A DNA stretch of 24,000 nucleotides from Terriglobia bacterium (GTDB taxonomy: Bacteria; Acidobacteriota; Terriglobia; Terriglobales; Acidobacteriaceae): contig CAWCKR010000004.1 of NCBI GenBank assembly GCA_963796205.1, positions 742,726 through 766,725 on the forward strand. Direction: 5' to 3'. The notes under the pieces were generated by a model. That model saw only the letters and a list, made by a program, of their open reading frames with translations, was not told the origin of the DNA and made no database searches. Below, one piece after another: positions 2,690 to 24,000 of this stretch. The position numbers and the translations under genes were made by a program. The first letter of the stretch is position 1. The number at the start of each line of letters is the position of its first letter.

Positions 2690-2705
2690 TGGCGCTCCAA
2701 AAGCA
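2690..2705 (+). promoter_or_regulatory. weak candidate sigma-54 (-24/-12) promoter upstream of the response regulator
   Basis: TGGCGCtccaaAAGCA has GG and GC at the canonical spacing, about 90 nt upstream of ATG 2795. The -12 element is AAGC rather than TTGC. Confidence 0.2.
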
Positions 2706-2794
2706 TGCTGTGGATCGTCCCCACATCCATCGCGCGCTTGGCGAGCATTTTTCCGGAGCACGCGACAGGCGCAGCGAGCAGGCAAGAGGGCCCC

Positions 2795-4156
2795 ATGTTA
2801 AAGGACAGAATTCTTCTCGTGGAGGATGAACTGGCGGTTCGCGAGACCCTCAGTGACTTCCTGCAAAGTCGTAACTATGACGTGCTGGCCACCGGAACCA
2901 GTGCTGGAGCCGAACAGTTCTGGCGCGCCGGACATCCCGACGCTGCTGTGCTCGACTACTGTCTGCCCGACGGCAACGCCCTCGATCTCATCCCGCGCCT
3001 GAAAGCCATCGATCCCACCATCCCTATCATCATTCTCACCGGATACGGTTCCATTGATTTCGCCGTCGAGGCCGTGAAACTCGGCGCGGAGCACTTTCTC
3101 ACCAAGCCCATCGAACTGGCCACCTTGTCGCTGATGCTGCAACGTTGCATCGAAAACCAGCGCAACCGGCAGAAACAGCTCGCCGAAAAGAGTCGTTTGC
3201 AACGCCGTAGCTTTGATCTCTTTCTCGGAACCAGTTCCGCGATCACCAGGCTCGCGGAAACCGCCAGAAAGGTACTGTCGAGCGACAGCCCGATTCTGAT
3301 TCAAGGCGAAACCGGCACCGGCAAAGGACTCCTCGCCCGGTGGCTGCACCAGAATGGACCGCGCGCGTCCTCCCCCTTCGTTGACCTCAACTGCGGCGCG
3401 CTCTCAGGCGAGCTCCTGGAGACCGAACTCTTCGGACACGAACGTGGTGCATTCACCGGAGCTGTGCAAACGAAAACCGGATTGCTCGAGATCGCTCACA
3501 AGGGCACTGTATTTCTCGACGAAATCGGCGACGTCGATTTGCAACTGCAGCCGAAACTGCTGAAGGTTCTCGAAGAAAAGCAGTTTCGCCGCCTAGGCGA
3601 TGTCCGCGACCGCCGCGTCGATATCCGCCTGATCGCCGCCACCCATCAGGATATGGCGCGCCGGGTGCGTGACAAGCTTTTCCGCGGCGATCTCTACTTT
3701 CGCATCAGCGCGATTCCCCTTCTCACTCCGCCATTGCGCGAGCGCGTGGAAGACATTCCTATGCTCACTACCAGCATGCTTGGCCATTTGGCCGCCGATC
3801 TCGGTACCGGTTCCATTGAAGCGAGTCCCGCGACCATGCGCATGCTGCAGTCTTATTCCTGGCCCGGCAACATTCGAGAGCTGCGCAACGTGTTGGAGCG
3901 TGCCGTCCTCTTGAATGGCGGACACATCATTACCGAAAGAGATCTCCACTTTGACGTAGAGCCTGAAGCCGCCGGGTTCGGCGGGCCGGTGAAAACCCTC
4001 GAAGACATGGAGCGCCAATACATCGAGGAGATCCTCTATCTCGAAGGCGGCCGCGTCGAGCCAGCCGCTCGAAAACTCGGGATTCCCCGCAGCTCCCTCT
4101 ATCACAAGATCAAGCAATACGGAATTAACCGTCCCAGTGCGAGCCCGACGCGCTAA
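2795..4156 (+). CDS. sigma-54-dependent Fis-family response regulator (NtrC/AtoC class enhancer-binding protein)
   Basis: Receiver domain (ILLVEDE, VLDYCLPDG, LTKP). AAA+ sigma-54 interaction domain (Walker A GETGTGKG, GAFTGA loop in ERGAFTGA, Walker B VFLDEIGD). C-terminal Fis-type HTH (AARKLGIPRSSLYHKIKQYGI). ATG 2795 with an AAGAGGG RBS was chosen over the 66-codon upstream extension in the ORF track. Confidence 0.9.
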   Translation: MLKDRILLVEDELAVRETLSDFLQSRNYDVLATGTSAGAEQFWRAGHPDAAVLDYCLPDGNALDLIPRLKAIDPTIPIIILTGYGSIDFAVEAVKLGAEHFLTKPIELATLSLMLQRCIENQRNRQKQLAEKSRLQRRSFDLFLGTSSAITRLAETARKVLSSDSPILIQGETGTGKGLLARWLHQNGPRASSPFVDLNCGALSGELLETELFGHERGAFTGAVQTKTGLLEIAHKGTVFLDEIGDVDLQLQPKLLKVLEEKQFRRLGDVRDRRVDIRLIAATHQDMARRVRDKLFRGDLYFRISAIPLLTPPLRERVEDIPMLTTSMLGHLAADLGTGSIEASPATMRMLQSYSWPGNIRELRNVLERAVLLNGGHIITERDLHFDVEPEAAGFGGPVKTLEDMERQYIEEILYLEGGRVEPAARKLGIPRSSLYHKIKQYGINRPSASPTR

Positions 4157-8096: not shown

Positions 8097-9776
8097 TTAA
8101 GGCGTTTTCTTCTTCGCGTACTGCCCCGCTAACTGCTGAAACGCCGGCAAGCTCTTCAACTTCACCAACTCCGGATCATTCTGCGCTTCTTCCGGCGAAT
8201 ACCCCTTCTCAAAGGCTTCCTTCAGCGCCGCCAGCGCCTCTGGCTGCTTGCCTCCCAATGCATTGACCTGCACCTGATCGTAAATCAACTGCAAATCCGA
8301 GGAATCAATCGCCCTCGCCTGCTTGATGTATTGCTCCGCATGCGCGGGATCGCCCTTCTTCGCATAGTAGAGCGCCAGGTCTCCCATCACGCTGGCCGAC
8401 CGCGGATTCACCTGCAACTGCTGATATGCGAGTCCGATCGCCTTATCGTAAGTTGTCACCGCTTGCTCGGTATGGCCTGACGCGCGGTACGCGTCCGCGA
8501 GGTTGCCCATCACCTGCTCGTCCTTCGGACTCATTTCCGCGGCCTTCTCGAAGGCGTGCACTGCTTCGTCATAGCGCTTTAGGAAAAAGTACGCTGTACC
8601 AAGATTCGAATATGCCGAGGCATCAGGCTCTAATTCGATCGTCTTCTGCAAGCCCGGGATCGCCTCCTGGTACTTCCCTTGTCGCAAATAAACCGCAGCA
8701 ATGTTTCCCCAGCCAATGGGATTGTCTGCTGCCAGTTCAGTCACACGCTGGTATTCTTGCAAAGCCTTGTCGCTGTCGCCGGTTTGCAAATAGGCGCCGC
8801 CCAGCTTGTTGTGGTTGTACCAATAATAGGGATTCGCGTTCACCGCAGCCTGATATGCCGCGATCGCATCCTGTTTCTTCCCGCTCGCCAGATATGCATC
8901 GCCCAACCGATAGTAAGTCTCATCGGAGTTGGGAGCCAGCTTCAGCGCCTGCTGCAGCTCATCCACCGCTTGTGCGCTCTTGCCGGTCGCGTTGTAAACG
9001 CTTCCCAGGGCCTGGTGAACTTCCGGCAGATTCGGGTTCAGCCCCTCAGCCTTCTGTGCCGCCACCAGCGCCTTCTGCGCATACAGCGAATCTTTGCTGT
9101 CGCGGTAAAGGCGCAGGTTCGCGTCCGCCAATCCTGCATACGCCAGAGCGAAATTCGGATCCTGTTTGAGCGCCTCTTCGAGGAACTGCACCGCCGACTG
9201 CGTATCGCGCGTGCCCTGGCTTCCGCGCAACGCGTTGCGTCCCTTCAAATACGAATCGTACGCTGTGCTGTTCTCCGTCGGATGCACTCCGCTGCGCGCC
9301 AACTCTTCATTCGTCGGCTTCAATTCGAGCGCGGTCACAACGCTGCCATAAATCTGATCTTCGAGCGTCAGCAAATCGGCCGGGATTCCGGAGAATTCAT
9401 CGCTCCACAAACGGCGTCCACTGGCCACATCTTCCAGATCGAGGGTGATGCGGAACTTGTCGGCCGACCCCTGCACCGTGCCCTGCAGAATCAAATTCAC
9501 GCCCAGCGCCTGCGCGGCTTTGGTCAGTGGCAAGTCTTTGTTCGCGATCTTGTCGACCGCCGCCGACGAGGCCACGTGCACTTCCTTCAACTGAAACATC
9601 TTCGCCGACAGCGCATCCACCAACCCGGCCCCCACGTAGCCCAGCGCCTTTTCGTCGCCCAGAACCTTCAGTGGAAGCACCGCCACATACTTTCCCTTGC
9701 TCAAGGAGGGAATGTTTCCCGCGCCGATCTCGCCCTGCTGCGTTGCCGGAAAGACCAGATGCCGCGTCGCCGGCAC
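8097..9776 (-). CDS. TPR-repeat protein with an N-terminal TolB-N-like module; apparently the detached C-terminal part of the upstream kinase
   Basis: 559-aa ORF from GTG 9776. The N-terminus (YVAVLPLKVLGDEKALGYVGAGLVDALSAKM) is the module normally found just after the TM helix of kinase-TPR fusions. About a dozen TPR units follow (e.g. ALGSVYNATGKSAQAVDELQQALKLAPN). Its 5' 380 nt overlap the kinase ORF in another frame. Confidence 0.8.
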   Translation of the reverse strand: MPATRHLVFPATQQGEIGAGNIPSLSKGKYVAVLPLKVLGDEKALGYVGAGLVDALSAKMFQLKEVHVASSAAVDKIANKDLPLTKAAQALGVNLILQGTVQGSADKFRITLDLEDVASGRRLWSDEFSGIPADLLTLEDQIYGSVVTALELKPTNEELARSGVHPTENSTAYDSYLKGRNALRGSQGTRDTQSAVQFLEEALKQDPNFALAYAGLADANLRLYRDSKDSLYAQKALVAAQKAEGLNPNLPEVHQALGSVYNATGKSAQAVDELQQALKLAPNSDETYYRLGDAYLASGKKQDAIAAYQAAVNANPYYWYNHNKLGGAYLQTGDSDKALQEYQRVTELAADNPIGWGNIAAVYLRQGKYQEAIPGLQKTIELEPDASAYSNLGTAYFFLKRYDEAVHAFEKAAEMSPKDEQVMGNLADAYRASGHTEQAVTTYDKAIGLAYQQLQVNPRSASVMGDLALYYAKKGDPAHAEQYIKQARAIDSSDLQLIYDQVQVNALGGKQPEALAALKEAFEKGYSPEEAQNDPELVKLKSLPAFQQLAGQYAKKKTP

Positions 9777-10947
9777 TGCGAAGAAATGCGATGATCAGCG
9801 CCAGTGCTACCGCTGCCCAGATCATGCGCCCCTGGCTCGGCAGGTTCAGTTGCACCTGCACGCTGCGCGGCGCCGAAGTCTGGGAGATCAATTTCTCGAC
9901 TACGCTGGGATTCGATTGCCACGCGTCCAGCGTATCCAGCAACTCCTGCGCGCTTCCATAACGATGATTCGGATCCCGCTCCAGGCAACGCGCGACCACC
10001 ATGCTCAGCGATTTCGGAACCGTGGGATCGACTTGCGAGATCGGCACCGCCGCTTCCCGCGTGCGCTTCACCAGCGTCGCGATTCCGGTATCTGCTTTAT
10101 AGGGAGACTTGGCTGTCAGCAGTTCGTAGAAGATCAGCCCCACCGCAAACAGGTCCGACCGCTGATCGAGCGTCTCGCCCATCGCCTGTTCCGGAGACAT
10201 GTACTCGAACGTTCCCACCAGCGCCCCGGTCTGCGTCATGCCCGGTGACTCGAGCAAGCGCGCCAACCCGAAATCCATCACTACCACGCGCCCCTGCGGA
10301 TCGCGCATCACATTCTGCGGCTTCAGGTCGCGATGAATCACTCCTTCGGCATGCGCTGCTTCCAGCGCGCGGCAAATCTGCTGAATCGTTTCCACCGATT
10401 GGCTGGGAGAAAATTTTCCGTGCCGCCGCAACAGCGTCCGCAGATCATCGCCTTCCACGTACTCCATGGTGATGAACCGCGTGCCCTCCGACTCGCCGAG
10501 GTCGTAAATCCGCACCACGTTCTTGTGGGTCACGTGCCGCGCCAGAATCAGTTCCTGCTTGAAGCGCTGCAGAATGCTGGGATTTCCCGCAAGCTCGGGA
10601 CGAATCACCTTCAACGCGATGATGCGATCCAGTTCCTGATCGCGTGCCTGGTAGACGGCACCCATGCCGCCCTGGCCCAGCGTTTTCAAAATGCGGTAAC
10701 GCCCGGCGAGGATCGCCCCGGGGCTAAGGAGTGCCTGCTTCGCCAGGTCAGTGTCAGAAATCGATGTGATTGGAGGGGCCGGAGTGGAACCGCCCATCGC
10801 ACTGCCGGGCGCCATGGTAGGCGCGTCGGAAATATCGGACTGCGGCGGCGGAGTCTTTTCAGCCACCGGCGCCCTCTTGGGCGGCGAGCTTTCCCCGGAA
10901 GCTTTGGGAGCCTCGAAATCAGGCATAGTTTTGCCGTCGTCTTCCAT
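9397..10947 (-). CDS. Ser/Thr protein kinase (Hanks type) with a C-terminal TM helix; the ORF tail after about 9785 looks out of frame
   Basis: GQGGMGAVYQA P-loop, IIALKV Lys, HRDLKPQN, DFG, YMSPEQ, then the TM segment MIWAAVALALIIAF. The last ~125 codons (Gly/Arg/Ala-rich) have no protein-like character and overlap the TPR ORF. Confidence 0.85.
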   Translation of the reverse strand: MEDDGKTMPDFEAPKASGESSPPKRAPVAEKTPPPQSDISDAPTMAPGSAMGGSTPAPPITSISDTDLAKQALLSPGAILAGRYRILKTLGQGGMGAVYQARDQELDRIIALKVIRPELAGNPSILQRFKQELILARHVTHKNVVRIYDLGESEGTRFITMEYVEGDDLRTLLRRHGKFSPSQSVETIQQICRALEAAHAEGVIHRDLKPQNVMRDPQGRVVVMDFGLARLLESPGMTQTGALVGTFEYMSPEQAMGETLDQRSDLFAVGLIFYELLTAKSPYKADTGIATLVKRTREAAVPISQVDPTVPKSLSMVVARCLERDPNHRYGSAQELLDTLDAWQSNPSVVEKLISQTSAPRSVQVQLNLPSQGRMIWAAVALALIIAFLRSAGDAASGLSGNAAGRDRRGKHSLLEQGKVCGGASTEGSGRRKGAGLRGGRVGGCAVGEDVSVEGSARGLVGGGRQDREQRLATDQSRAGAGREFDSAGHGAGVGRQVPHHPRSGRCGQWTPFVER

Positions 10948-12825: not shown

Positions 12826-14144
12826 GTGTTCCAGCGATTCCGCGCGCTGCTTTTGTTGAGTCTGCTCCTATGCCTGCTGAGTTGTGGCGGGGGCAGTTCA
12901 AACGCCAATCCCGCTCCGCCTCCTCCCCTTCCCGGCGCCATTCCCGCCAAACTTTTTTCGCTCTCCGTTCACAGCGTCAACGACTGGCCGACGGTTCCAT
13001 TTGCCGGCCTTCGCCTGTGGGGAACCGGTACTTCATGGCAGGACATCAATTACGCACCGGGAATCTTTGATTTCTCAGCGCTCGACCGCTGGATTAGCGC
13101 CGCCCAGGCTCACAACACCGATTTGATCTACACCTTCGGCGAAGTGCCCGGCGTGGGCCTCTTCCGACACGACTCTGATTTGCGGTAACAGCGGCGCTCC
13201 CATCGGCACTTGCGCTCCGCCTGACGATCTCAATGCTGATGGCACCGGAGCCAACCAGCATTGGAAGGACTTCGTGACCGCTGTGGTCACCCACGCCGCG
13301 GGAAAAATCAAGGTCTGGGAAATCTGGAACGAACCCACCGTCCCCGGATACTGGCAGGGCACGAACCAGCAGATGCTGCGCTTGGCGCAAGACGCCTACG
13401 GCATCATTAAAGCCATCGACCCGAATGCGCTGGTGACCACGCCCGCGCCCTCTACCGGAATCAACGGCGTCGCCAACTGGATGGGCCCCTATCTCGCGCT
13501 CGGTGGTGGCAATACGCCGACATCATCAGCTTTCACGGATATAACTGGAGCACGCAGGCGGGAGTCTATCCCCAGCCCGAGGCCATCGTCCCCCTGGTAA
13601 ACAATCTGCAGGGCCGTATTGGCCAGCAATTCGCAAAATAATAAACCGCTGTGGTGCAGCGAAGGCGGCTGGGGAGACACGACCGGCAACGGCTTCGTCG
13701 ATCAGGATCTGCATGCCGCTTACTTGGCGCGCCACTACCTGTTGCAGGCAAGTGAAGGCGTCGTCCGTTACTTCTGGTATGCCTGGGATAATGGCCTCGA
13801 CAGCGCCGGATTGCCCGATGGACTCTGGCTTCCTAATCTCCGGCATCACGCCGGCCGGCACGGCCTATCAGCAAATTCAAAACTGGATGGTCGGCGCCGT
13901 GCCGACCGCCCAGTGCTCCGCCAACGGAAACATCTGGACCTGCAATTACACTCGCGCGAACGGATATCAAGCCGAGGCGATCTGGGATACCTCGAAGAGC
14001 TGTTCGAACGGCATCTGTGGCACCGGCCCGCAAGGTGCACCATCGCAATATGTGCACTACCGCGATCTCAACGGCAATACCACCAGCATTACCGGTGGTA
14101 CTGTCCCGGTGGGAGCGAAACCGATCCTGTTAGAGAATCAGTGA
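12826..14144 (+). pseudogene. clan GH-A (TIM-barrel, GH39/GH5-like) glycoside hydrolase lipoprotein, disrupted by four frameshifts
   Basis: Lipoprotein signal (LLLCLLSCGG). The reading frame must switch near 13150, 13511, 13636 and 13815 to give a continuous sensible protein. That protein carries WEIWNEP (acid/base Glu), ADIISFHGY and KPLWCSEGGWG (nucleophile Glu). ORF-track pieces: 12826..13188, 13274..13600, 13619..14185 and 13713..14144. Confidence 0.75.
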
Positions 14145-14356: not shown

Positions 14357-14433
14357 GGGCGCGTAGCTCAAACGGATAGAGCATCGGATTTCTAATCCGA
14401 GGGTTGCAGGTTCAATTCCTGCCGCGCCTACCA
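14357..14433 (+). tRNA. tRNA-Arg (anticodon TCT), CCA encoded
   Basis: Manual cloverleaf. Acceptor GGGCGCG/CGCGCCT. D arm GCTC-AAACGGATA-GAGC. Anticodon arm TCGGA-TTTCTAA-TCCGA. Variable loop GGGTT. T arm GCAGG-TTCAATT-CCTGC. Discriminator A followed by CCA. Confidence 0.95.
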
Positions 14434-14740: not shown

Positions 14741-15154
14741 TTACGACCTTCCCACGAAAGACACTCGTTCGGGGTGTCTCACCAGACTCACCGCCAAGAA
14801 CGCACCGAGAAGAGCATCAAACGCCAGGCAGAAACCCGGCCACCAGTGTGGTACACCGGGGTTGTCGATGAAGAAGCGGTGGACGAAGTCAAAAATGCCG
14901 TGCCCAATAAGGGCGGCGACTATCCACCAGAAGTTTTTTCTGAAGCCGAGGACGGCAACCAGCAGGAATGCGCTTGCGACAACGATTTCAATGATCAGCG
15001 CGCGCCGCGAAGCTCCCATCGCAGCAAACAACACATAATAGGAGGCAATCACGATCAGCACGGTTGGATAGAAGGCGCGCGCCCGATCAAAGCCAGTCAT
15101 GGCAGCAAAACCAGCCACCGCCAAAGACAGGATCAGGCCAATCAGATATTCCAT
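14741..15154 (-). CDS. small integral membrane protein (about 4 TM), unknown function
   Basis: ATG 15154 is preceded by GAGGAG. MEYLIGLILSLAVAGFAAMTG... has four hydrophobic segments. The 79-codon upstream extension in the ORF track (to 15391) is Arg-rich and not protein-like. Confidence 0.65.
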   Translation of the reverse strand: MEYLIGLILSLAVAGFAAMTGFDRARAFYPTVLIVIASYYVLFAAMGASRRALIIEIVVASAFLLVAVLGFRKNFWWIVAALIGHGIFDFVHRFFIDNPGVPHWWPGFCLAFDALLGAFLAVSLVRHPERVSFVGRS

Positions 15155-15353
15155 TTGCTCCTCTCGCCGCGGGGCCCGCACGGATCTGCAATACCCGAAC
15201 TTCCCGGCATGCTTCTCTACCGTTTCGGATCCCTGTCGTCGGGCGTATTCCCCGCGCCTGATGGCGTTCGACATTCCGAGTTCCTCGTCACGTCGGGCAC
15301 GGGAAAGGCGACAATTCCTCCCCAAGTTCCGCGTCGCCCCCCTCGCTTTTCTA

Positions 15354-15371
15354 TTGTGACTTACGTCACAA
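15354..15371. promoter_or_regulatory. perfect CRP/FNR-family type palindrome
   Basis: TTGTGAC-ttac-GTCACAA, i.e. TGTGA-N6-TCACA with extended arms. It lies about 110-125 nt upstream of the cytochrome-porin ATG (15480), in the divergent intergenic region. Confidence 0.4.
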
Positions 15372-15479
15372 ACCTGCGTGACCCCTGCCACAGCGTCTTG
15401 GGTCGTAGCTAACCGAAAATCCCCACACTGAGTTTGGGGAGTATCGGTTCAGAGAATGAATTCATTAGGAGGCGATTCG

Positions 15480-17054
15480 ATGCCCATGCATCGTCGCAAG
15501 ACTGCAATCTTGTTCGTGCTCGCTGGCATGATTCTGCTGTCGAGCACAAGCTACGCCATTCCCGCGTTCTCACGCCTGTACGGGACATCGTGCAGCACCT
15601 GCCACCTCGACTTCCCCAAGCTCAATGACTTCGGGAAAGCCTTCAAAGATGCTGGCTTCAAGTTTCCGAAAGACGACGAAACCTTCATCAAGATCCCGCC
15701 GGTGATGCTCGGATCGCAGGCCCAGCAGGAACTCTGGCCGCACACGATTTGGCCGGGCAGCATTCCCGGACTGCCTCCGATCGGCCTGCGCTATAACACC
15801 TTTTTCCAGGTGGTCAGCCAGAATCGCAACAATTACTCGAATCTGCAGAACCCGGGAGATCCAACAGCCGGCTTCATCCCCCGTACCGATTTTCAGTCCG
15901 GACTGTTCAGCATCTTTACGGCTGGAAACTTCGGCAGCGACATTGCCTTCTGGGTTGATGACGATATCAGCGTTGGAGGGGCTAACGCCAATGGCGGTCT
16001 CGGCGACGGTTACCTCAAGTTTGTGAACATCGGACGCTTCCTCAAATTGCCGACAGACTCTCTGAGCTTGCGGGTCGGCCAATTCGAACTCGACTTGCCC
16101 TTCAGCCCGGCGCGCAGCTGGAACCTGAGTGGTTGGGACATTTACGGTCAGTCCAATGTTGGAATCCCGAACGCGACCTTTGGAAGCCCCACGGTAAATA
16201 ATGGCTTTTCCCTGGATAGTGCCGCGCAGGGCGTCGAACTCAGCGGCGGCCATACCTACCGCGGCTACCACTACTCGCTCGCCTTCGTGAATCAAAACAC
16301 CGGTGGCACGCCGGCCGGCGGCACGAACGTTCCGCCTGAGGTTCAGTACACCTCCGACTCGAACTTCAAAGATATCTACGGACGCTTCTCCTATCGTTTC
16401 AATCTCGAGCGCGATCCTAAAAGCCGCAACGAGATTCAGGCCGCGGGAGCTACGGGGCCGCGAGACCATACGTACCTCAACGTAGGCGGCCTCTACTTCT
16501 ACGGCCGTTCGGTGCAGCGCTTCCAGGGACAAGACTCCGCCGGCGATCCCGTCGTTCTCACCGCGCGCGAGCCCTTCTATCGTGCGGGCGCCGATTTCAG
16601 CTTTAACTACCATACCTTCAACCTGTTCGGTCAATACATCTACGGACGCGATCAGAACCTGCTGCCCCTGGTCCCGACCAATTTCGTGTTGCCCAGCGGC
16701 TTCATTACCGGCCATCCGGCGACTTTCGACGGAGGCTTCATCGAAGCCGACTATCTGGCGCTGCCCTGGTTGATGACCATCATGCGCTGGGACGAGGTCA
16801 ACTCCAGCGCCGACTTCTTGAATGGCGTGGGCGCCACTCCCGACTCCTCGAGCGCACCTTTCCTCTCACCCTACCGCTCGGCTCGCAACCGTTTCACACC
16901 CGGAGTGCAGTTCCTGGTTCATGCCAACATCAAAGCCTCGTTCGAATATCAGATTCGGCCCCAGCAGGTCGTTTACGACCCCACGACCGGCAAGCCATTG
17001 ACCAATCCCTTCCGCACCAATTCAGCGGTGGCGGGATTGGAGTTCGTGTACTAA
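15480..17054 (+). CDS. Cyc2-like fused monohaem cytochrome c / outer-membrane beta-barrel porin
   Basis: ATG 15480 lies 7 nt after AGGAGG. Signal peptide ending SYA. A single CxxCH sits right after the cleavage site in PAFSRLYGTSCSTCHLDFPKLNDFG, with a PxL motif after the haem site. About 470 aa follow, rich in Gly, Tyr, Phe and Asn with an alternating pattern. The protein ends in the OMP-type terminus GLEFVY. Confidence 0.8.
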   Translation: MPMHRRKTAILFVLAGMILLSSTSYAIPAFSRLYGTSCSTCHLDFPKLNDFGKAFKDAGFKFPKDDETFIKIPPVMLGSQAQQELWPHTIWPGSIPGLPPIGLRYNTFFQVVSQNRNNYSNLQNPGDPTAGFIPRTDFQSGLFSIFTAGNFGSDIAFWVDDDISVGGANANGGLGDGYLKFVNIGRFLKLPTDSLSLRVGQFELDLPFSPARSWNLSGWDIYGQSNVGIPNATFGSPTVNNGFSLDSAAQGVELSGGHTYRGYHYSLAFVNQNTGGTPAGGTNVPPEVQYTSDSNFKDIYGRFSYRFNLERDPKSRNEIQAAGATGPRDHTYLNVGGLYFYGRSVQRFQGQDSAGDPVVLTAREPFYRAGADFSFNYHTFNLFGQYIYGRDQNLLPLVPTNFVLPSGFITGHPATFDGGFIEADYLALPWLMTIMRWDEVNSSADFLNGVGATPDSSSAPFLSPYRSARNRFTPGVQFLVHANIKASFEYQIRPQQVVYDPTTGKPLTNPFRTNSAVAGLEFVY

Positions 17055-17084
17055 AGCAAGCGATTTGAAAGAACAGGAGAAATC

Positions 17085-17666
17085 ATGAAACGCAATGCCC
17101 TAGTCATAACCATGATCGTCGCTGCACTGGCGCTCGCCGCTCACGCCGGCACCATCAGCGGAAAAGTCTCAGGTGTCGCCGGCGAGTCTGTCGTCTACGT
17201 CGACACCATCGCGGGAAAGACTTTCCCGGCGCCCACGCAGAGTCCCATCATCGACCAGAAGGGTCTCTTGTTCCAACCGCACATTACCGCCGTGCAGGTT
17301 GGAACTACGGTCGAATTCCTCAATAGCGACAGCGTCGCTCACAACGTTTTCTGGACCTCGGTTGGAGGCAACAAGAAGCTCGGACACAACCTCGGTACCT
17401 GGCCCAAGGGCGAGAAGCGTCCCTTTAAGTTCGACAACCCTGGCGCGGTTGCACTGCTGTGCAATGTCCATCCCGAAATGTCGGGCTACGTCATCGTCGC
17501 TCCCACACCGTATTTCGCCGTGACCGACAAGTCCGGTGAATACAAGATCGAAAACGTCCCTGACGGAAGTTACACAGTGACTGCCTGGCATGAAGGCGCA
17601 AAAAATTCCTCCAAGCCTGTCACCGTCTCCGGCGACACCAAAGCGGATTTCACTCTGACCAAGTAA
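17085..17666 (+). CDS. periplasmic type-1 copper (cupredoxin, amicyanin-like loop) protein with a C-terminal CarboxypepD_reg-like beta-sandwich
   Basis: Signal peptide (ALALAAHA). Candidate Cu ligands are the His in SVAHNVFW plus the Cys, His and Met in LLCNVHPEMSGY (C-x2-H-x2-M, as in amicyanin). C-terminal KSGEYKIENVPDGSYTVTAWHEG. AGGAGA RBS. Confidence 0.85.
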   Translation: MKRNALVITMIVAALALAAHAGTISGKVSGVAGESVVYVDTIAGKTFPAPTQSPIIDQKGLLFQPHITAVQVGTTVEFLNSDSVAHNVFWTSVGGNKKLGHNLGTWPKGEKRPFKFDNPGAVALLCNVHPEMSGYVIVAPTPYFAVTDKSGEYKIENVPDGSYTVTAWHEGAKNSSKPVTVSGDTKADFTLTK

Positions 17667-17672
17667 GGAGAA

Positions 17673-17705
17673 GGGGAGCGGTCGCTGACCGCTCCCTTTT
17701 CTTCT
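17673..17705 (+). terminator. rho-independent terminator
   Basis: GGGAGCGGTC-gct-GACCGCTCCC is a 10-bp GC-rich stem followed by TTTTCTTCT, starting 7 nt after the cupredoxin stop. Confidence 0.6.
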
Positions 17706-17758
17706 GCTTGTCACAGACATCCACCATCAACAGCGGCTAAAAAGACCGGATCACCATC

Positions 17759-19744
17759 ATGCTGAAACGCTACAAGGACAAAAAAGTCGACAAGGATTGG
17801 TTGAACACAAACTTTCCTTGCATGATGGCCTGTCCGGCCCACACTAACGCGGGACGCTACGTAGGCCTGATCGCCGAAGGCCGCTTCGAAGAAGCCTACA
17901 AAATAGCCCGCGACCCCAATCCCCTGGCCAGCATTTGCGGACGCGTCTGTGCTCATCCGTGCGAGACCGCCTGCCGCCGCGGCGAAATCGACAAACCGAT
18001 TTCCATCCGCGCCCTCAAGCGCTTTCTCACCGAACGCTACGGCGCCGAATCGAAGCACCCCGTCGATGTGAACGCTGGCCGTGGCCAGAACAAGCTACCT
18101 TTCAAGGTTGCTGTCGTTGGCGGAGGTCCCGTCGGACTCTCTGCCGCGCACGACCTCGCCTTAATGGGCTACGCGGTCACGATCTTCGAAGCCGCTCCAG
18201 TCGCCGGCGGCATGCTCTACCTCGGCATCCCCGAATACCGCCTCCCGCGCGACGTAGTCGAAGCTCAAGTCCGCGAGATCCTCGAAACTGGCGACATCAC
18301 CTTGCTGTTGAATCACGCCGCCGGACGCGACTTCGCCATCTCCGACCTCCGGCGAGAAGGCTTCGATGCTGTCTTAATCGCTGTCGGCGCTCACCGTAGT
18401 CGCGACCTCACCATTCCCGGAGTCGATCTCGACGGCGTCTACAAAGGCATCGATTTCCTGCTGAACGTCAACCTCGGCTACAAGTTCACCATCGGCAAGA
18501 AGGTCATTGTCATCGGCGGCGGCAATGTGGCCATGGACGTCGCTCGCTCCGCCGCGCGCGAAGTGGTCAAGCAACACGTCGCCGGAGTCGAAGACCTCGA
18601 ACCCTCGATGGAGAACGTCAGCGCGGTCGCCACCAAAGAAATGGTCGACATCTCGCTCTCCGCGCTGCGCATGGGCGCTCACGAAGTGAATCTCGTCTGC
18701 CTCGAAAAGCGCGAGGAGATGCCTGCGGCTTTGGAAGAGATCGTAGAGGCCGAAGAAGAAGGCATCATCATGCATCCCGGCCTCGGCCCCAAGCGCATGA
18801 TCGGGAAAAACGGACACGTGGTTGCCCTCGAAGCTCTGAAGACCAAGTGGGTCTTTGACGAGAACAAGCGCTTCAATCCAGCGTTCTATGAGGGCAGCGA
18901 GACCCTCATCGAGTGCGACACCATCATCATGGCCATTGGCCAGGCCCCGAAGCTCGACTTTCTAAAGAAGGAAGACGGCGTCGAGATTTCTCCTCGCGGC
19001 TTGATCTCAGTCAATCCGCAAACCCTGATGACCTCAGCTTCCGGCATCTTTGCAGGTGGCGATTGCGTCTTCGGTCCGCGTCTCATCATCGACAGCGTCG
19101 CCGATGGCAAGCGCGCCGCAGTTGGCATAGACGAATTCCTGCGCGGCCAGAAGCATCCCGATCCCATCGTTGAAGTGGAAGTTTTCAAACGCCACAGCAT
19201 GCCTCTCGAATTGCTCGACCTGGTGCGGCCCGCCGTACCCATGCTGCCGCTCGAACGCCGCACCGGAGTCACCGAAGTCGAAATCGGATACGACGCCGCC
19301 AGCGCGGTCGAAGAGGCGCAACGCTGCCTGCACTGCTGGGTCAATACCGTCTTCGAGGGTGTCCCCGAAGACGGCACCATGTGCATCCTGTGTGGCGGAT
19401 GCGTCGATGTCTGTCCTGAGAATTGCCTTGAACTGGTTTCGCTTGGCCGCATCGCCTTCGAGCCGGAAACCGTGCAGCACATCCGCGATGAACAGAAGTT
19501 GTTCGGCGTCGAGCTCGATGAAGTGGCTGCGGACGAACTCGGCGTTGTCACCGGCTCGGCCATGCTGAAAGATGAAACCCGCTGCATTCGTTGCGGATTA
19601 TGCGCTGCCCGATGCCCTGTCGGCACCATCACCATGGAGTCTTACAACCTGGTTCCTGCCGAACCCACGGGATTGATCTCCATTGAAACGATTGATGGAC
19701 CACTTCGCGCCAAAGCCCCGGCAACTGTAGGAGGCCCGAAATAA
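17759..19744 (+). CDS. GltD-like (glutamate synthase small-subunit family) FAD/NAD(P)-binding Fe-S oxidoreductase with a C-terminal 2x[4Fe-4S] ferredoxin domain
   Basis: N-terminal Fe-S motifs (FPCMMACPAHT, CGRVCAHPCETAC). Two Rossmann motifs (VVGGGPVGLSAA, VIGGGNVAMDVA). GGDC near the FAD site. C-terminal CILCGGCVDVCP and CIRCGLCAARCP. No signal peptide or TM helix, so predicted cytoplasmic. Confidence 0.9.
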   Translation: MLKRYKDKKVDKDWLNTNFPCMMACPAHTNAGRYVGLIAEGRFEEAYKIARDPNPLASICGRVCAHPCETACRRGEIDKPISIRALKRFLTERYGAESKHPVDVNAGRGQNKLPFKVAVVGGGPVGLSAAHDLALMGYAVTIFEAAPVAGGMLYLGIPEYRLPRDVVEAQVREILETGDITLLLNHAAGRDFAISDLRREGFDAVLIAVGAHRSRDLTIPGVDLDGVYKGIDFLLNVNLGYKFTIGKKVIVIGGGNVAMDVARSAAREVVKQHVAGVEDLEPSMENVSAVATKEMVDISLSALRMGAHEVNLVCLEKREEMPAALEEIVEAEEEGIIMHPGLGPKRMIGKNGHVVALEALKTKWVFDENKRFNPAFYEGSETLIECDTIIMAIGQAPKLDFLKKEDGVEISPRGLISVNPQTLMTSASGIFAGGDCVFGPRLIIDSVADGKRAAVGIDEFLRGQKHPDPIVEVEVFKRHSMPLELLDLVRPAVPMLPLERRTGVTEVEIGYDAASAVEEAQRCLHCWVNTVFEGVPEDGTMCILCGGCVDVCPENCLELVSLGRIAFEPETVQHIRDEQKLFGVELDEVAADELGVVTGSAMLKDETRCIRCGLCAARCPVGTITMESYNLVPAEPTGLISIETIDGPLRAKAPATVGGPK

Positions 19745-19746
19745 CC

Positions 19747-20238
19747 ATGGCTGACGAGAAACGGATCACCTCGCCGCTACCTACCGACGAGCACTCGCGT
19801 CGGGAATTTTTTCTGAAGCTGGGACTCGGATCACTGGGCATCGCCGCGGCGGGAACGACGGTTTTCGCTTACCAGTTCCTCTCGCCGAACGTGCTCTTTG
19901 AACCTTCCCCGATCGTGAATGCCGGCAAGCCCGAAAGCTACCCCCTCGATTCTGTGACGCTCGATGTCAACAACGGCATTTACCTGATTCACGCCAAGGA
20001 AGGATTCTTCTCGCTAAGTGCCATCTGTACGCATCTCGGTTGCATGACCGCGTGGAAGCCGGAACTCGGCATCATCGCCTGCCCCTGCCACGGCAGCAAG
20101 TTCAAGCGCGATGGCGAAAAAATCGAAGGCCCCGCACCCAAGCCGCTGCCCTGGCTCAAAACCTGGGTCAGCGATGAAGGCGATCTGATGGTCGACCGCT
20201 CCGCCGACATTCGTCCCATGGAGTTCGTGAGGGTTTGA
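19747..20238 (+). CDS. Rieske [2Fe-2S] protein with Tat-type signal/anchor
   Basis: [20 protein letters not shown] (twin-Arg). Cluster boxes CTHLGC and CPCHGS. The start is 2 nt after the upstream stop. Confidence 0.9.
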
Positions 20239-20240
20239 GC

Positions 20241-21032
20241 ATGGAAAAAACGGTCTCAAATTATTTTGATGAGTTGCGCGCAACCAGAATCTGGCGCTCG
20301 GTCTTCCGCAGTGGCATAGGTTCGAGCACTCTGCACCGCTCGCTGGCCATCCAGCAGAACGTCTTCCTGCATCTGTTCTCGACCAAAGTTCGCCGCCGCA
20401 TGCTGAGCTTCAGCACCACCTGGTATCTGGGAACGCTGACTCTCGGGACGTTTCTGATTCTGGTCAGCACGGGAATCTTCCTGATGCTCTACTACCATCC
20501 CTCGGTGCCCCAGGCATACGCCGACACCAAGGACCTGCAGTTCGTCGTTTCTTCCGGACTGTTTCTCCGCAACCTTCATCGCTGGTCCGCACACGCCATG
20601 GTGTTCCTCGTCTTCGCGCATATGTTCAAAGTTTTCTATCGCGGCGCTTATCGCGCCCCCCGCGAGTTCAACTGGGTTATCGGCGTCATCCTTCTGGTCA
20701 TCACGCTTCTGCTCAGCTATACGGGATACCTTCTTCCCTGGGATCAACTCGCCTACTGGGCGATCACCATCGGATCGAATCTCGCTTCGGCGGTTCCGGT
20801 CTTCGGAACCAAGGTCCACTTCCTCATGCTGGGTGGAAATCAGGTGAACGCCAACGCGCTGCTGCGCTTTTACGTTCTGCACTGCATGATCTTGCCGCTG
20901 ACCGCGATCATGTTCATCGCGATTCACTTCTGGCGCATCCGCAAAGACGGCGGACTCTATGCGCACCAAAGCGAACCTAAGACTCTCGCCGCACCGACCG
21001 TGCCGCAAGTCGCCGGAAAGGAGGCGCTGTGA
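20241..21032 (+). CDS. cytochrome b6-type (N-terminal half of a split cytochrome b)
   Basis: Haem-ligand pairs H-x13-H ([17 protein letters not shown]) and H-x14-H ([17 protein letters not shown]); the x14 spacing is b6-type. [11 protein letters not shown] motif. ATG 20241 with a GAGGG RBS; TTG 20235 is an alternative. Confidence 0.9.
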
Positions 21033-21733
21033 GCGATCAGAAAGACTTCGTCGCCGGACTGGATTCCAACGCCCGCAAGTCTCCGAAGCGTATTGTTTTC
21101 GTCACGCGCCGTACTTCGGCGCAAGTCAAAGTCACCGACGAGGACCAGCTTCAGACCTATCCGGAGGTGCTGTTCCGCGCCGTAGTGGCCATCGAAACCC
21201 TGGCGATCGCCCTCGTCGTCATCGCGCTCGCCTTCAATGCGCCGCTTGAGGGCCTTGCCGATCCATCGCATACACCGAACCCTGCAAAAGCACCGTGGTA
21301 CTTCCTTGGCCTGCAGGAAATGCTGCACTATTTCCCGCCCGTGGTCGCCGGAGTTCTGGTACCGACGCTGGTCATCATCGCGTTAGTGGTCATTCCCTAC
21401 TTCAACATCAATATCGAGGCGGAAGGGTTGTTCCTCAAAGACCGCCAGAAGCGTCTGCGGATCTTTTACACGATCGTCATCGTGTTTTGTGCGTTTTTAC
21501 TCTTCTTCGATGTCATCGTTGCTCTCGTCCCAACGCTCATTGTCGCCGCCTTTATGATCGCGGCGTCGCAAAGTTCACCGCAGTCGCCTTCGCCCTTTCG
21601 ACGGTATCTCGCGGCGAAACCGCTCTCTTACTGGATCATGACCTGGTTCCTGTTCGAACTGGTCGTGCTCACTGCTGTTGGCACCTTCTTCCGCGGCCCG
21701 GGCTGGTCCTGGGTGCTGCCCTGGAGGAGCTAA
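21029..21733 (+). CDS. cytochrome b C-terminal-domain / b6f subunit IV-like membrane protein with extra C-terminal TM helices
   Basis: GTG start overlaps the upstream stop (GTGA), with GGAGG upstream. [19 protein letters not shown] corresponds to the PEWY-region motif. There are several further hydrophobic helices. Confidence 0.8.
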
Positions 21734-23821
21734 GTGCAATCATCGGGCAAGAACTCTCTCTGGAAAACGCTCTTTGGTGATCCCGTCCGCGCCTTCGGCG
21801 TCGTCAGCATACTTCTGCTGATCTCGCTCGCCATTGCTCCGGCAAAAAATTACTTCAGCGAGTGGCGCCACTACCAACACCAATACCTGAAACTCGTTCG
21901 CGGACGCGGCGACGCCGTCACTCTGCAGCGTCATTTCGAAGCAGGCATTCACCAGATCTGGCTGCCCGAAATCAACGTTGTCGATCGCTGCACCACCTGC
22001 CACGTCGGCCAGAAGGAAGCCAGCCTCACCGATGTCAGCACGCAGCCTTTCCGCCGCCATCCCGCGATTCCGCACACCTCCGAACAGTTCGGATGCGTGA
22101 TGTGTCATCGTGGACAGGGCGCCGCGACCACCGTCGAAGAAGCCCATCGCAGCACGCTGGCCTGGGAGCAGCCGATCCTCCCCGCACGCTACGTTGAGTC
22201 ATCCTGCGGACAATGTCATCACACCCCGCTGACCGGAACGCCGCAGTTAAACGCCGGCCGCGATCTGCTGGCCCGCGCGGGATGCGTCCATTGCCACACC
22301 ATCAAGGCACAGGACGGCAGCGCCATGAAAGCCTCCGACGATCCCCCCTCTCTTTCGCACATCGCCGACAAGACCACGCGCGAATGGATCTACGCCTGGC
22401 TCAAAGATCCACAAGCCTATGCCGTCACCGCGGGCATGCCCAACTTCAAGCTGAGCGATAACGATGCGCGCGACATCTCGGCATTCCTCATCGCGAACAG
22501 CACGCCGCTAGTGGGTGACACCGCAACGGTAGCTGCACCCGGCAAGGCGCCTGATCCGACCGCCGGCGCCAGCCTCTACGGAGAGTCCTTCTGCGCTTCT
22601 TGCCACGCCGTGCAGAATGCCGCTGGGAACGTTGTCGGCGGCAACATCGGACCCGAACTCACTCGCGTTGGCAGCAAGGTGAAACCGGAGTGGTTGCAAG
22701 CGTGGCTGAAAAATCCGCGCACCTATGACCCAGCAACGGCCATGCCGCACTACCGTTTCACCGACCAGCAGGTGAGCGTGCTGAACGGTTTCCTGCAGGC
22801 CAAGGCCGATGCCGATCTGCTCGCGAACGTTCACCTCGAGGCCGCCACTGCTGACCAGATCGCCCACGGCAAACTTCTCGTCACCGAATACGGATGCGCC
22901 TCCTGCCACGAAATCAGCGGGATCAAGAAGCCCGAAAACTTCGCTCCCGAACTCACTCGCATCGGCAGCAAGCCCGTCACGCAACTCATTTTCCTGCCGG
23001 GGATGCAACACTCGCTGCCCGACTACATCTCGAATAAGATCCGGCAGCCGCGAGCCTTCGGATCCGCGCTGAAGATGCCGCAGTACAGCTTCACGCCCGC
23101 GCAGATCGACGCACTCACCACCGCGCTGCTCTCGCTCACCGACCGATCGCAGAGCTTGCCGATGTCGCTCGCAGTGGCCGCGCCTCCAGGCTCGCACTAT
23201 CAACCTGCGGGCAAAGCCGGACAGCTGATCAACGATCTAGCTTGCTTCAGCTGCCACACCATCAACGGCCGCGGAGGCGATATGGCCCCCGACCTTACCT
23301 GGGAAGGCAGTTCCGTGCAGCGCCAGTGGTTGACCGAATTTCTGAAGAATCCCAACACCCTTCGTCCCGCATTGATTCGCCGCATGCCGAAGTTCAATCT
23401 TTCTGATAGCGATATTAACGAACTCACTGATTACATCATGACCGTCTACCAGACGCCGGCCTTCGATCGCGACTCGATGCCGCAGACCGGATATCCCGCC
23501 GCGCAGGTCGAACAAGGCAAGCAACTCTTCTATTCCAAATACGCCTGCCAGTCGTGCCACATCATTGACACGAAAACGGACAAGGGATACGTCGGGCCCA
23601 CTCTCACACAAGTGGGATCACGCCTGACCGCCGCATGGATGTATCACTGGCTGAAGAATCCGCAGGCTCTTCGCCCCGGAACGATGGAGCCGAACCGCAA
23701 CATGAGCGACGAAGATGCGCAGGCATTGACCGCCTACCTCACCACGCTAAAAAGCGGAAAGGCAGCAGCCAAGACAGCTGCCCACACCGGGAAACCCGCA
23801 ACTCTGGAGGCAAGGAAATGA
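21734..23821 (+). CDS. membrane-anchored octahaem c-type cytochrome (3-haem N-terminal module plus five tandem class-I monohaem domains)
   Basis: Eight CxxCH motifs: CTTCH, CVMCH, CGQCH, CVHCH, CASCH, CASCH, CFSCH, CQSCH. N-terminal TM helix FGVVSILLLISLAIAP. The last five motifs are each followed ~45-60 aa later by a conserved Met (MPNF, MPHY, MPQY, MPKF, MEPN). GTG start lies directly after the upstream TAA, with GGAGGAG upstream. Confidence 0.9.
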   Translation: MQSSGKNSLWKTLFGDPVRAFGVVSILLLISLAIAPAKNYFSEWRHYQHQYLKLVRGRGDAVTLQRHFEAGIHQIWLPEINVVDRCTTCHVGQKEASLTDVSTQPFRRHPAIPHTSEQFGCVMCHRGQGAATTVEEAHRSTLAWEQPILPARYVESSCGQCHHTPLTGTPQLNAGRDLLARAGCVHCHTIKAQDGSAMKASDDPPSLSHIADKTTREWIYAWLKDPQAYAVTAGMPNFKLSDNDARDISAFLIANSTPLVGDTATVAAPGKAPDPTAGASLYGESFCASCHAVQNAAGNVVGGNIGPELTRVGSKVKPEWLQAWLKNPRTYDPATAMPHYRFTDQQVSVLNGFLQAKADADLLANVHLEAATADQIAHGKLLVTEYGCASCHEISGIKKPENFAPELTRIGSKPVTQLIFLPGMQHSLPDYISNKIRQPRAFGSALKMPQYSFTPAQIDALTTALLSLTDRSQSLPMSLAVAAPPGSHYQPAGKAGQLINDLACFSCHTINGRGGDMAPDLTWEGSSVQRQWLTEFLKNPNTLRPALIRRMPKFNLSDSDINELTDYIMTVYQTPAFDRDSMPQTGYPAAQVEQGKQLFYSKYACQSCHIIDTKTDKGYVGPTLTQVGSRLTAAWMYHWLKNPQALRPGTMEPNRNMSDEDAQALTAYLTTLKSGKAAAKTAAHTGKPATLEARK

Positions 23822-24000
23822 CAAGGCGCGAACTCACCATCGGCGCAATGACGTTTCTCCTGATGCTCTCCGCTTGCTCGCGCAAGTCTGCCCCGGCATC
23901 AAGTCCTGCAGGCACGGCCTTCGGCGCTGCTATCGTCGAATCAAGTGGAGGCAAGCAGATCGGAGCCACCGGCGCGACCCTCAGCCAACCAATCGTCGTC
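23818..24000 (+). CDS. lipoprotein, partial (continues beyond the window)
   Basis: The ATG overlaps the upstream stop (ATGA). MTRRELTIGAMTFLLMLSAC has a lipobox-like LSAC. The frame is open to the window end. Confidence 0.5.
   Translation, partial: MTRRELTIGAMTFLLMLSACSRKSAPASSPAGTAFGAAIVESSGGKQIGATGATLSQPIVV

Follow-up and report, generated by a model that had tools for sequence, protein, structure and literature searches.

In a 24,000-nucleotide stretch of a Terriglobia bacterium genome (contig CAWCKR010000004.1 of assembly GCA_963796205.1, positions 742,726 to 766,725; the whole stretch is hereafter called the window), the open reading frame (ORF) at 17085-17666 on the plus strand is a real and strongly conserved gene whose sequence specifies a Sec-secreted type-1 copper protein (cupredoxin). 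Its copper domain is nested within a beta-sandwich of the CarboxypepD_reg family and, across genomes, the gene is strongly linked to that of a divergent Cyc2-type outer-membrane cytochrome-porin, encoded immediately upstream. We propose, and consider it probable on balance, that this cupredoxin is a periplasmic blue-copper carrier and the dedicated partner of the Cyc2-type protein, both belonging to a module that passes electrons to inner-membrane chains, most likely in the inward direction. Cyc2 is the most used marker gene of microbial iron oxidation and its periplasmic partners are known in few Proteobacteria only. What the gene signifies where iron oxidation is not known is still debated (Keffer et al. 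2021).

Results and Discussion

A secreted cupredoxin with a complete type-1 ligand set

The cupredoxin ORF (ATG start, 193 residues) opens 30 nucleotides past the stop codon of an upstream 532-residue ORF (15456-17054), as an earlier, sequence-only reading of this DNA had stated, and a Shine-Dalgarno sequence (AGGAG, 17075-17079) lies 5 nucleotides ahead of its ATG. Direct reading of the N-terminus places the cut site of the signal peptide before GTISG and finds no lipobox Cys. A minus-strand ORF overlapping the gene (17169-17720) was rejected as a shadow ORF, the homology and domain evidence being all on the plus strand. The family is very large: more than 8000 database proteins match the cupredoxin (the best 120 are all more than 80% identical and about 193 residues long), and an exhaustive search of representatives at 50% identity returned 14,845 hits at E <= 0.001, of which 138 reach E <= 1e-30; the hits include many proteins of about 200 residues that align end to end with the cupredoxin at 40-50% identity.

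The Pfam model PF00127 (Copper-bind) matches residues 56-138 with 28.6 bits (cut-off 21.2), and the ligand motifs read in this region, DSVAHNVFW (H86) and CNVHPEM (C126, H129 and M132, that is, C-x2-H-x2-M), make up the complete type-1 set to which the sequence-only reading had drawn attention. In a profile alignment with amicyanin (PDB 1aac_A), H86, C126, H129 and M132 fall one-to-one onto H53, C92, H95 and M98 with identical spacing and, among the window protein and 100 diverse relatives, they are kept in 99, 101, 99 and 99 of the 101 sequences, respectively, so that the set is about 98% conserved. The AlphaFold2 model of the protein (predicted local distance difference test, pLDDT, of 79.8) supports a Greek-key cupredoxin fold. 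A Foldseek search with this model returned 69 PDB matches at E <= 0.001, headed by amicyanin, plastocyanin, pseudoazurin and CuA domains, with amicyanin, the Nitrosopumilus cupredoxin 5fc9 and plastocyanin as the best. Structure prediction, which the sequence-only reading had named as a check, has produced a model resembling amicyanin and plastocyanin, the profile alignment places the ligands at the amicyanin positions, and the predicted type-1 site would be expected to bind copper.

The earlier label "amicyanin-like" is apt for the ligand loop but not for the family. Orthology to amicyanin was rejected because the NCBIfam amicyanin model TIGR02657 scores 27.8 bits, far below its family cut-off of 110.2, and because no methylamine dehydrogenase (mau) genes were found among the window ORFs scanned with Pfam. 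Additionally, none of the 32 PDB sequence hits at E <= 1 is a rusticyanin chain, in agreement with the earlier view that this is a cupredoxin type unrelated to rusticyanin.

The copper domain is nested within a beta-sandwich

The Pfam model PF13620 (CarboxypepD_reg) matches residues 140-192 with 37.6 bits (cut-off 32.3), covering profile positions 27-82 only. When residues 22-45 were spliced onto residues 140-193, the full profile (positions 1-82 of 82) was matched with 45.7 bits, the C-terminal piece alone scoring 40.7 bits over positions 30-82 in the same test. Because the spliced sequence matches the whole profile, we read the cupredoxin domain as inserted between strands 2 and 3 of a CarboxypepD_reg sandwich, which is complete but interrupted. 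The sequence-only reading had recognised this sandwich correctly, but had described an end-to-end fusion, whereas the splice test points to a nested cupredoxin. In the AlphaFold2 model, the first strands (residue 22 onward) have pLDDT values of 91-94; G26, which lies in this segment, is kept in 98 of the 101 relatives, and the nested layout is common to the family throughout.

Two observations on the architecture stand apart from this result. Far from the copper site, the C-terminal sandwich carries a WHE motif (W168-H169-E170, 17586-17594), kept in 94, 63 and 72 of the 101 sequences, respectively, which might serve for docking or contribute a residue to the electron path. Five proteins of the representative library (P0242, P0264, P0269, P0270 and P0275) are tandem duplications of the entire nested unit and, in P0242, the first copy is without the Met ligand (CVTHPEA) and the second is intact.

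A probable divergent Cyc2-type cytochrome-porin upstream

The upstream gene was called mechanically from 15456; its true start is probably 15480 or 15486, because its homologues (524 residues, 98% coverage) begin at the Met of 15480 (MPMHRRK...). Pfam and NCBIfam have no match for its product. The N-terminus holds a signal peptide, the motif AIPAFSRLY (15555-15581), CSTCH (15591-15605; residues 38-42 of the 524-residue form and its sole haem site) and PKL (15615-15623), and beyond this cytochrome domain the protein is predicted to be mainly beta-strand over more than 365 residues. Cyc2 proteins are recognised by a signal peptide, one CXXCH, an upstream AXPXFAR[Q/K][T/Y] and a PXL motif four residues downstream (Keffer et al. 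2021; PMC8406198). In the window protein the order is AIPAFSRLY-GTS-CSTCH-LDF-PKL (subfamily consensus AIPAFSRQY), with PKL four residues past CSTCH, and the spacing of the motifs equals that of canonical neighbours found elsewhere (AVPSFARQT-GLA-CSGCH-YAP-PEL, e.g. AVPSFARQTGLACSGCHYAPPEL). Exactly one CXXCH, located at residues 28-55, is present in 118 of 120 homologues, and tblastn aligns the protein near full length (more than 400 residues) with metagenome proteins carrying PAFARKY, at 25-29% identity. With its AlphaFold2 model as the query, the top 47 Foldseek matches are all 16-strand porins at a template modelling (TM) score of about 0.5, including OprP (2o4v) and OprO (4rjw), which are also the templates reported for Cyc2 (PMC8406198). 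Taken together, the single CXXCH, the Cyc2-like motifs, the similarity to PAFARKY proteins and the porin-only fold matches agree with the earlier description of this neighbour as a cytochrome-porin, and suggest, more specifically, a divergent Cyc2-type single-haem cytochrome-porin.

Several points weigh against this assignment. The window motif PAFSRLY does not pass the strict published filter PXFAR[QK][TY], owing to the change from A to S, which is subfamily-wide (a further change, from Q to L, is found only in the window and in its closest relative, L002). The model, which is mostly long beta-strands, has low confidence (pLDDT 48.6, from a shallow alignment of sequences 72-94% identical) and is taken as weak support for the porin fold only. 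In part of the related loci described below, the window's subfamily (type I) is replaced by a second one (type II, about 450-490 residues, AVPS[Y/F]ARQTGLACSGCHYAPPELNPAGRRFKLLGY), and profile-profile alignment joins the two subfamilies over the 52 residues of the cytochrome domain only. Finally, the function of divergent Cyc2 clusters is uncertain, as Keffer et al. (2021) have warned.

The pair is conserved as a unit across genomes

The linkage of the two genes was followed in a scan of one genome per species, with an alignment of 15 closer sequences as the query, and at least 583 genomes were found to carry a cupredoxin relative. The best 80 loci of the scan, at 69-92% identity, are all from Terriglobia/Terriglobales metagenome-assembled genomes (Ca. 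Sulfotelmatobacter, Terracidiphilus and Granulicella are among them, and one bin carries the label Binatia) and, together with L001 (an 81%-identical locus), they form the set of 81 loci used throughout this work. A single-haem Cyc2-type gene of 445-580 codons lies directly upstream of the cupredoxin gene in 76 of the 81 loci, 46 times of type I, as in the window, and 30 times of type II, with its near-canonical AVPS[Y/F]ARQT (L017, L019, L028, L035, L037, L043, L045 ... L081). In two of the five exceptions (L030 and L071), a type II gene closes the cluster at its opposite end, so that a Cyc2-type gene is found within the cluster in 78 of the 81 loci. After the pair, a cluster encoding a GltD-like protein, a Rieske protein, cytochrome b, subunit IV and a multihaem cytochrome c (the bc cluster) follows in 70 loci, and nine loci having enough flanking sequence keep the pair without it. 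In the two of these that were examined closely (L007 and L040), a di-haem c-type cytochrome of about 300 residues and a secreted protein of about 460 residues are encoded instead.

The same arrangement recurs at larger distances. With a representative as reference that shares only about 46% identity with the window protein, metagenome cupredoxins at 45-73% identity to this reference are preceded by a gene for a 410-550-residue protein with a single CXXCH and PAFARKY, PAFSRKY, PSFARQT or similar, and are followed by the GltD/Rieske/cytochrome b set or by a di-haem cytochrome; taxonomic breadth past Terriglobia rests only on these unassigned metagenome contigs. In a reciprocal look-up from three Cyc2-type homologues, the next gene encoded a cupredoxin of 192-195 residues in all four places found, one of which is a third context, without bc genes. 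The linkage across genomes that the sequence-only reading had named as a check is hence present in the Terriglobia loci, in their metagenome relatives and in the reciprocal direction, and the case for a co-inherited module of Cyc2-type and cupredoxin genes is strong. Of the two refuting conditions named in that reading, misplaced ligands and missing linkage, neither is indicated, the first as judged by profile alignment and fold comparison.

As to the limits of this block, tblastn of the 216-residue ORF at 14741-15391 gave no match in any of the 81 loci, and in L001, the sole relative with gene calls examined there, a different flank precedes the Cyc2-type gene; on these grounds, the conserved block seems to begin at the Cyc2-type gene. 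At its other end, the cluster closes with a secreted protein of about 424-469 residues without Pfam match (L007, 10638-12965; L040, 10639-12912; L001, 17406-18680), which is found in loci with and without the bc cluster at 61-63% identity between the two versions and which, in the loci without bc genes, is placed after the di-haem cytochrome (about 300 residues, Cytochrome_CBB3-type).

Proposed mechanism and direction of electron flow

In the mechanism that we propose, the cupredoxin, as a soluble periplasmic type-1 copper protein, would shuttle single electrons between the haem of Cyc2 and the inner-membrane chains, acting as the dedicated redox partner of the Cyc2-type protein encoded 30 nucleotides upstream. 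Fe(II), or another extracellular one-electron donor, would be oxidised at Cyc2 and the electron would then be passed to Cu(II). From the copper site, an uphill branch would lead, through the Rieske/cytochrome b-flavoprotein complex, to quinone and NAD(P)+, and a downhill branch, through c-type cytochromes, to an oxidase. At the inner membrane, the window has a Rieske/cytochrome b complex with a GltD-like NAD(P)-binding subunit, whose multihaem cytochrome c would be joined to the outer-membrane haem by this route; in some relatives, a di-haem cytochrome c would take its place. The stem-loop found after the cupredoxin gene (see below) would separate the pair from the downstream genes, whether by ending or attenuating transcription or by stabilising the mRNA. 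We infer the shuttle role of the cupredoxin, which is well supported, and its physical contact with Cyc2 from sequence; which way the electrons run, what the substrate is and how the hairpin acts on transcription are likewise inferred, and the metal exchanged by the route is probably iron.

All conserved neighbours of the cupredoxin gene encode redox proteins. A hint of the Rosetta-stone kind comes from P0324, a 547-residue protein of the representative library in which a di-haem cytochrome c peroxidase (CCP_MauG, 197 bits) is followed by a C-terminal nested cupredoxin/beta-sandwich unit. Since peroxidases of this class are reduced by small cupredoxins or cytochromes, the fusion hints that the family donates electrons to haem enzymes, in what would be a generic electron-donor role.

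Inward flow is, in our analysis, the most likely direction, because all the Cyc2 homologues that have been tested biochemically (Cyc2 of A. ferrooxidans, Cyt572 of Leptospirillum and Cyc2 of PV-1) oxidise Fe(II) (Keffer et al. 2021). What stands of the earlier analogy between this locus and the Cyc2 plus copper-shuttle logic is thus the pairing of the genes, while Fe(II) oxidation itself can only be put conditionally. It has to be weighed, in particular, against the facts that Terriglobia are not known as iron oxidisers and that acidophilic Acidobacteriia have been linked with Fe(III) reduction (PMC7980381).

The latter link would fit the same module working in the opposite direction, an alternative that we hold to be less likely but plausible. 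In this case, the GltD-type Rieske/cytochrome b complex would oxidise quinol and bifurcate the electrons, the low-potential branch leading to NAD(P)+ and the high-potential branch running from the Rieske protein over the multihaem cytochrome c and the cupredoxin to Cyc2, where a high-potential acceptor outside the cell would be reduced, such as Mn(III/IV), oxidised humics or, at acid pH, Fe(III). Anammox complexes of like composition have been proposed to make NAD(P)H in this manner, via a Rieske centre at about +300 mV and a high-potential acceptor (PMC12954380), the potential of a cupredoxin would fit the high-potential branch, and additional functions of Cyc2 are considered possible by Keffer et al. 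(2021). Nevertheless, Fe(II) oxidation is what the tested Cyc2 homologues have in common; the versions of the cluster without bc genes carry a di-haem, c4-like cytochrome, which in A. ferrooxidans is on the path to the oxidase (PMC2754497); and the known Fe(III) reducers are served by multihaem porin-cytochrome conduits, not by Cyc2.

The cupredoxin sequence follows the type of Cyc2

A different possibility is that the cupredoxin is mainly the partner of the Rieske/cytochrome b complex, as plastocyanin is of b6f, and that its adjacency to Cyc2 is a matter of operon history. The frequency with which the bc cluster follows the cupredoxin gene (70 of the 81 loci) speaks for it, as do four loci where the cupredoxin gene and the bc cluster occur but the gene immediately before them is not a Cyc2 gene; two of these four, however, are the ones with Cyc2 at the far end of the cluster, and the converse arrangement, Cyc2 and cupredoxin without bc genes, is kept in nine loci and in one more, in another context.

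The covariation of the sequences also bears on this question. When 56 cupredoxins were clustered by the unweighted pair group method with arithmetic mean (UPGMA), 20 type-II-associated sequences split from a group of 31 type-I- and 5 type-II-associated ones, whereas the adjacent gltD-like genes mix the two Cyc2 types (one cluster has 24 of each). At gltD identities of 0.92 or more, the cupredoxins are 0.886 identical when their loci have the same Cyc2 type and 0.772 when the types differ; these pairs are not phylogenetically independent and the test was made without phylogenetic correction, a limitation that makes it indicative only and that counts against leaning on it. Since the cupredoxin sequence tracks the Cyc2 type and that of the adjacent gltD does not, the comparison indicates that the cupredoxin is inherited with Cyc2 and not with the bc cluster. 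Additionally, a stable hairpin lies between the cupredoxin and the bc genes, and none between Cyc2 and the cupredoxin. With these observations on the other side, we give little credence to the bc complex as the main partner, and keep the cupredoxin as the partner of Cyc2.

A recurrent stem-loop follows the pair

Downstream of the cupredoxin stop codon, the GC-rich sequence at 17666-17705 folds at -29.2 kcal/mol (z = -4.76; none of 200 shuffled sequences was as stable), with a core GGGAGCGGTC-GCT-GACCGCTCCC followed by TTTTCTTCT, and a terminator scan reports a stem of 14 pairs, 8 of them GC. Within 100 nucleotides past the cupredoxin stop codon, 64% of the 81 loci have a hairpin at -20 kcal/mol or below, in comparison with 4% of random windows and 1% of the 100-nucleotide stretches before the cupredoxin start (Mann-Whitney tests: p of about 2e-24 against random windows and of about 3e-20 against the Cyc2-cupredoxin spacer). 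Rfam has no known RNA family at this position, and no sigma-70-like promoter was detected between 15000 and 21500, including the region before the gltD-like gene.

The hairpin is a candidate intrinsic terminator, attenuator or 3'-stabiliser of the mRNA and, as far as the sequence goes, would set the Cyc2-cupredoxin pair apart from the downstream genes. The sequence-only reading had gone further and called it a strong terminator. The stem-loop fits a terminator in its stability and recurrence, less so in its T-run, and the function can be stated only as a possibility because the run past the stem is interrupted (TTTTCTTCTGCTTG) and partly paired with an upstream GAAG; in the same sense, the T-tract is weak in most relatives, and a strict stem-plus-T rule picks out only 7 of 80 loci, which weakens the case for termination. 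Similarly, the description of the pair as a discrete unit is sound as regards its separation by the hairpin, but the pair is not an independent island, because the Rieske/cytochrome b cluster still follows it in about 89% of loci.

The palindrome GGAGCGG...CCGCTCC occurs once in the window, against an expectation of 0, and its arms recur in 12 other loci, once in each and solely at the 3' hairpin position; a dispersed element of the repetitive extragenic palindromic (REP) kind was rejected for this reason. The conservation of the arm sequence in these loci and in the window, the location of the repeat 53 nucleotides upstream of the gltD-like start and the lack of a detected sigma-70-like promoter could also be read in terms of DNA, the inverted repeat (17675-17695) being an operator for a regulator of the Rieske/cytochrome b genes and not an RNA terminator. 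We consider such an operator improbable: the spacing of the arms ranges from 7 to more than 17 nucleotides and the inner stem varies, with pairing kept, which favours an RNA (or DNA) hairpin over a protein site of fixed geometry; three loci (L058, L070 and L075) pair GAGCAG with CTGCTC, both sides having changed; and, in many loci, the position is occupied by a stable hairpin unrelated in sequence.

Comparison with known systems

In its logic, the system works like that of Cyc2 and rusticyanin, since it links the gene of an outer-membrane, single-haem Cyc2-type cytochrome with that of a periplasmic type-1 copper protein, and it belongs to neither the rusticyanin nor the amicyanin family. The window cupredoxin is unrelated to rusticyanin beyond the fold, and its C-x2-H-x2-M loop is shorter than the ligand loop of rusticyanin (Cys138, His143 and Met148); in contrast with rusticyanin, it is nested in a beta-sandwich and its gene immediately adjoins cyc2. 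The cluster is without oxidase genes, and its bc complex, split in the manner of b6f, has a GltD-like subunit. The host is no extreme acidophile but a soil bacterium of the Terriglobia. In A. ferrooxidans, rusticyanin passes electrons downhill through the di-haem Cyc1 to an aa3 oxidase, and uphill through the di-haem CycA1 and bc1 to NAD(P), the petI operon including a gene for an NAD(P)-binding dehydrogenase, sdrA1 (PMC2754497). These two branches are mirrored by the two downstream contexts of the window family, a di-haem cytochrome c in one and the Rieske/cytochrome b genes with an NAD(P)-binding protein in the other. That the cupredoxin handles copper instead, as a chaperone or resistance protein, or is a non-redox structural protein of the periplasm, has in its favour the use of cupredoxin-like folds in copper trafficking and the former proposal of the "Cup" protein of the A. 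ferrooxidans rus operon as a copper deliverer (PMC2754497), and is very improbable in view of the full His/Cys/His/Met set in about 98% of diverse relatives, of nearest structures that are all electron-transfer cupredoxins and of conserved neighbours that are redox proteins throughout.

Amicyanin of Paracoccus (TIGR02657) has the same four ligands with identical spacing and gives the best Foldseek matches, but the window protein is only about 22% identical to it, has the extra beta-sandwich and is encoded in a window without methylamine dehydrogenase genes. With the described Cyc2 porins (Keffer et al. 2021; McAllister et al. 2020), the upstream protein shares the signal peptide, the single CXXCH, the PXL and the motif spacing, and differs from them in having AIPAFSRLY instead of AXPXFAR[Q/K][T/Y]; the neutrophilic Cyc2 pathways, unlike the present one, are described with c-type cytochromes and no dedicated neighbouring cupredoxin. 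The Kuenenia complexes Kuste4569-4574 and Kustd1480-1485 combine, as does the downstream cluster, a GltD-like FAD/iron-sulfur protein, a Rieske protein, a split cytochrome b and a multihaem cytochrome c, but they are not described with a Cyc2-cupredoxin pair, whereas such a pair precedes the complex genes in about 89% of Terriglobia loci. Finally, the beta-sandwich family (CarboxypepD_reg, PF13620) is shared with the N-terminal domains of the SusC-like/TonB-dependent transporters, where it is found at the periplasmic side of an outer-membrane barrel. In the window protein, by contrast, the sandwich stands by itself as a scaffold, one loop of which accommodates a redox domain; as a speculation, it might dock at the periplasmic face of the Cyc2 barrel. 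One SusC-like/TonB-dependent transporter is encoded near the cluster in L001.

A literature search, with most subscription journals outside its reach, found no description of the Cyc2-cupredoxin pairing and no paper naming Cyc2 together with Terriglobia. In relation to the literature searched, the nested cupredoxin family, its near-obligate pairing with two Cyc2 subfamilies, the bridge to GltD-type Rieske/cytochrome b complexes and the host range in abundant soil Terriglobia are new. An easily recognised partner protein thus accompanies two Cyc2 subfamilies in several hundred or more Terriglobia species genomes and in other, unassigned metagenome lineages, and connects Cyc2, directly at the genetic level, with the Rieske/cytochrome b complexes that have an NAD(P) reductase module and are themselves little understood. 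It is, moreover, a small soluble protein, whose redox potential would decide the direction of electron flow. Should the proposal be true, one of the most abundant classes of soil bacteria would take part in the redox cycling of iron or humic substances in acid soils and peat. The most far-reaching version, in which Cyc2 and the nested cupredoxin are the entry port of a self-contained machine for extracellular electron uptake, feeding an NAD(P)+-reducing Rieske/cytochrome b complex from Fe(II), reduced humics or Mn(II), is one that we regard as doubtful at present; if it were true, hundreds of species of abundant soil and peat Terriglobia, now taken for ordinary organoheterotrophs, would oxidise iron cryptically, as lithotrophs or mixotrophs, by a pathway distinct from those of Proteobacteria and Leptospirillum.

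Downstream cluster and remaining features of the window

The coordinates of the features discussed in this work are collected in Table 1. The GltD-like gene is the first of the downstream cluster, which likely encodes the inner-membrane partner complex.

Table 1. Features of the Cyc2-cupredoxin locus and of the downstream cluster, in window coordinates.
Feature	Position	Strand	Basis or remark
Cyc2-type fused cytochrome-porin (putative), 524 residues	15480..17054	+	motifs, homologues, tblastn, model
Cyc2-cupredoxin spacer, 30 nucleotides	17055..17084	+	Shine-Dalgarno AGGAG inside; without stable hairpin
Sec-type signal peptide, residues 1-21, MKRNALVITMIVAALALAAHA	17085..17147	+	sequence reading; AlphaFold2 helix at 2-19
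First two CarboxypepD_reg-like strands, residues 22 to ~42, GTISGKVSGVAGESVVYVD	17148..17210	+	splice test, pLDDT, conservation
Inserted type-1 copper (cupredoxin) domain, residues ~43-139	17211..17501	+	Pfam, conservation, fold, profile alignment
Ligand codon H86	17340-17342	+	
Ligand codon C126	17460-17462	+	
Ligand codon H129	17469-17471	+	
Ligand codon M132	17478-17480	+	
C-terminal beta-sandwich strands, residues 140-193 and stop	17502..17666	+	includes W168-H169-E170
GC-rich stem-loop	17666..17705	+	folding, scan, recurrence
GltD-like FAD/NAD(P)-binding iron-sulfur flavoprotein, C-terminal 2x[4Fe-4S] domain	17759..19744	+	profile searches
Rieske protein	19747-20238	+	Pfam; synteny in 70/81 loci
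Cytochrome b, N-terminal part	20235-21032	+	Pfam; synteny in 70/81 loci
Subunit-IV-like cytochrome b, C-terminal part	21029-21733	+	Pfam; synteny in 70/81 loci
Multihaem cytochrome c, 695 residues	21734-23821	+	Pfam; synteny in 70/81 loci

A further gene of the cluster (23818-24000) overlaps the stop codon of the multihaem cytochrome gene and is cut by the end of the window; it encodes a lipoprotein (...LMLSAC...) homologous to a 244-residue protein of L001 with Big_1 and cytochrome c domains (16685-17419). About 1 kb upstream of the cluster, there is a tRNA-Arg gene (anticodon TCT) at 14357-14433 on the plus strand. It is preceded by consecutive plus-strand ORFs in different frames (12826-13188, 13274-13600 and the overlapping 13619-14185/13713-14144), which look like one lipoprotein glycoside hydrolase ("WEIWNEP") split by frameshifts, either a pseudogene or the product of indel errors in a long-read assembly. 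The window also contains regulatory genes, at 2597-4156 (plus strand), 9397-10947 (minus strand) and 8097-9776 (minus strand), whose products are a sigma-54-dependent response regulator, a Ser/Thr protein kinase and a TPR/BTAD protein.

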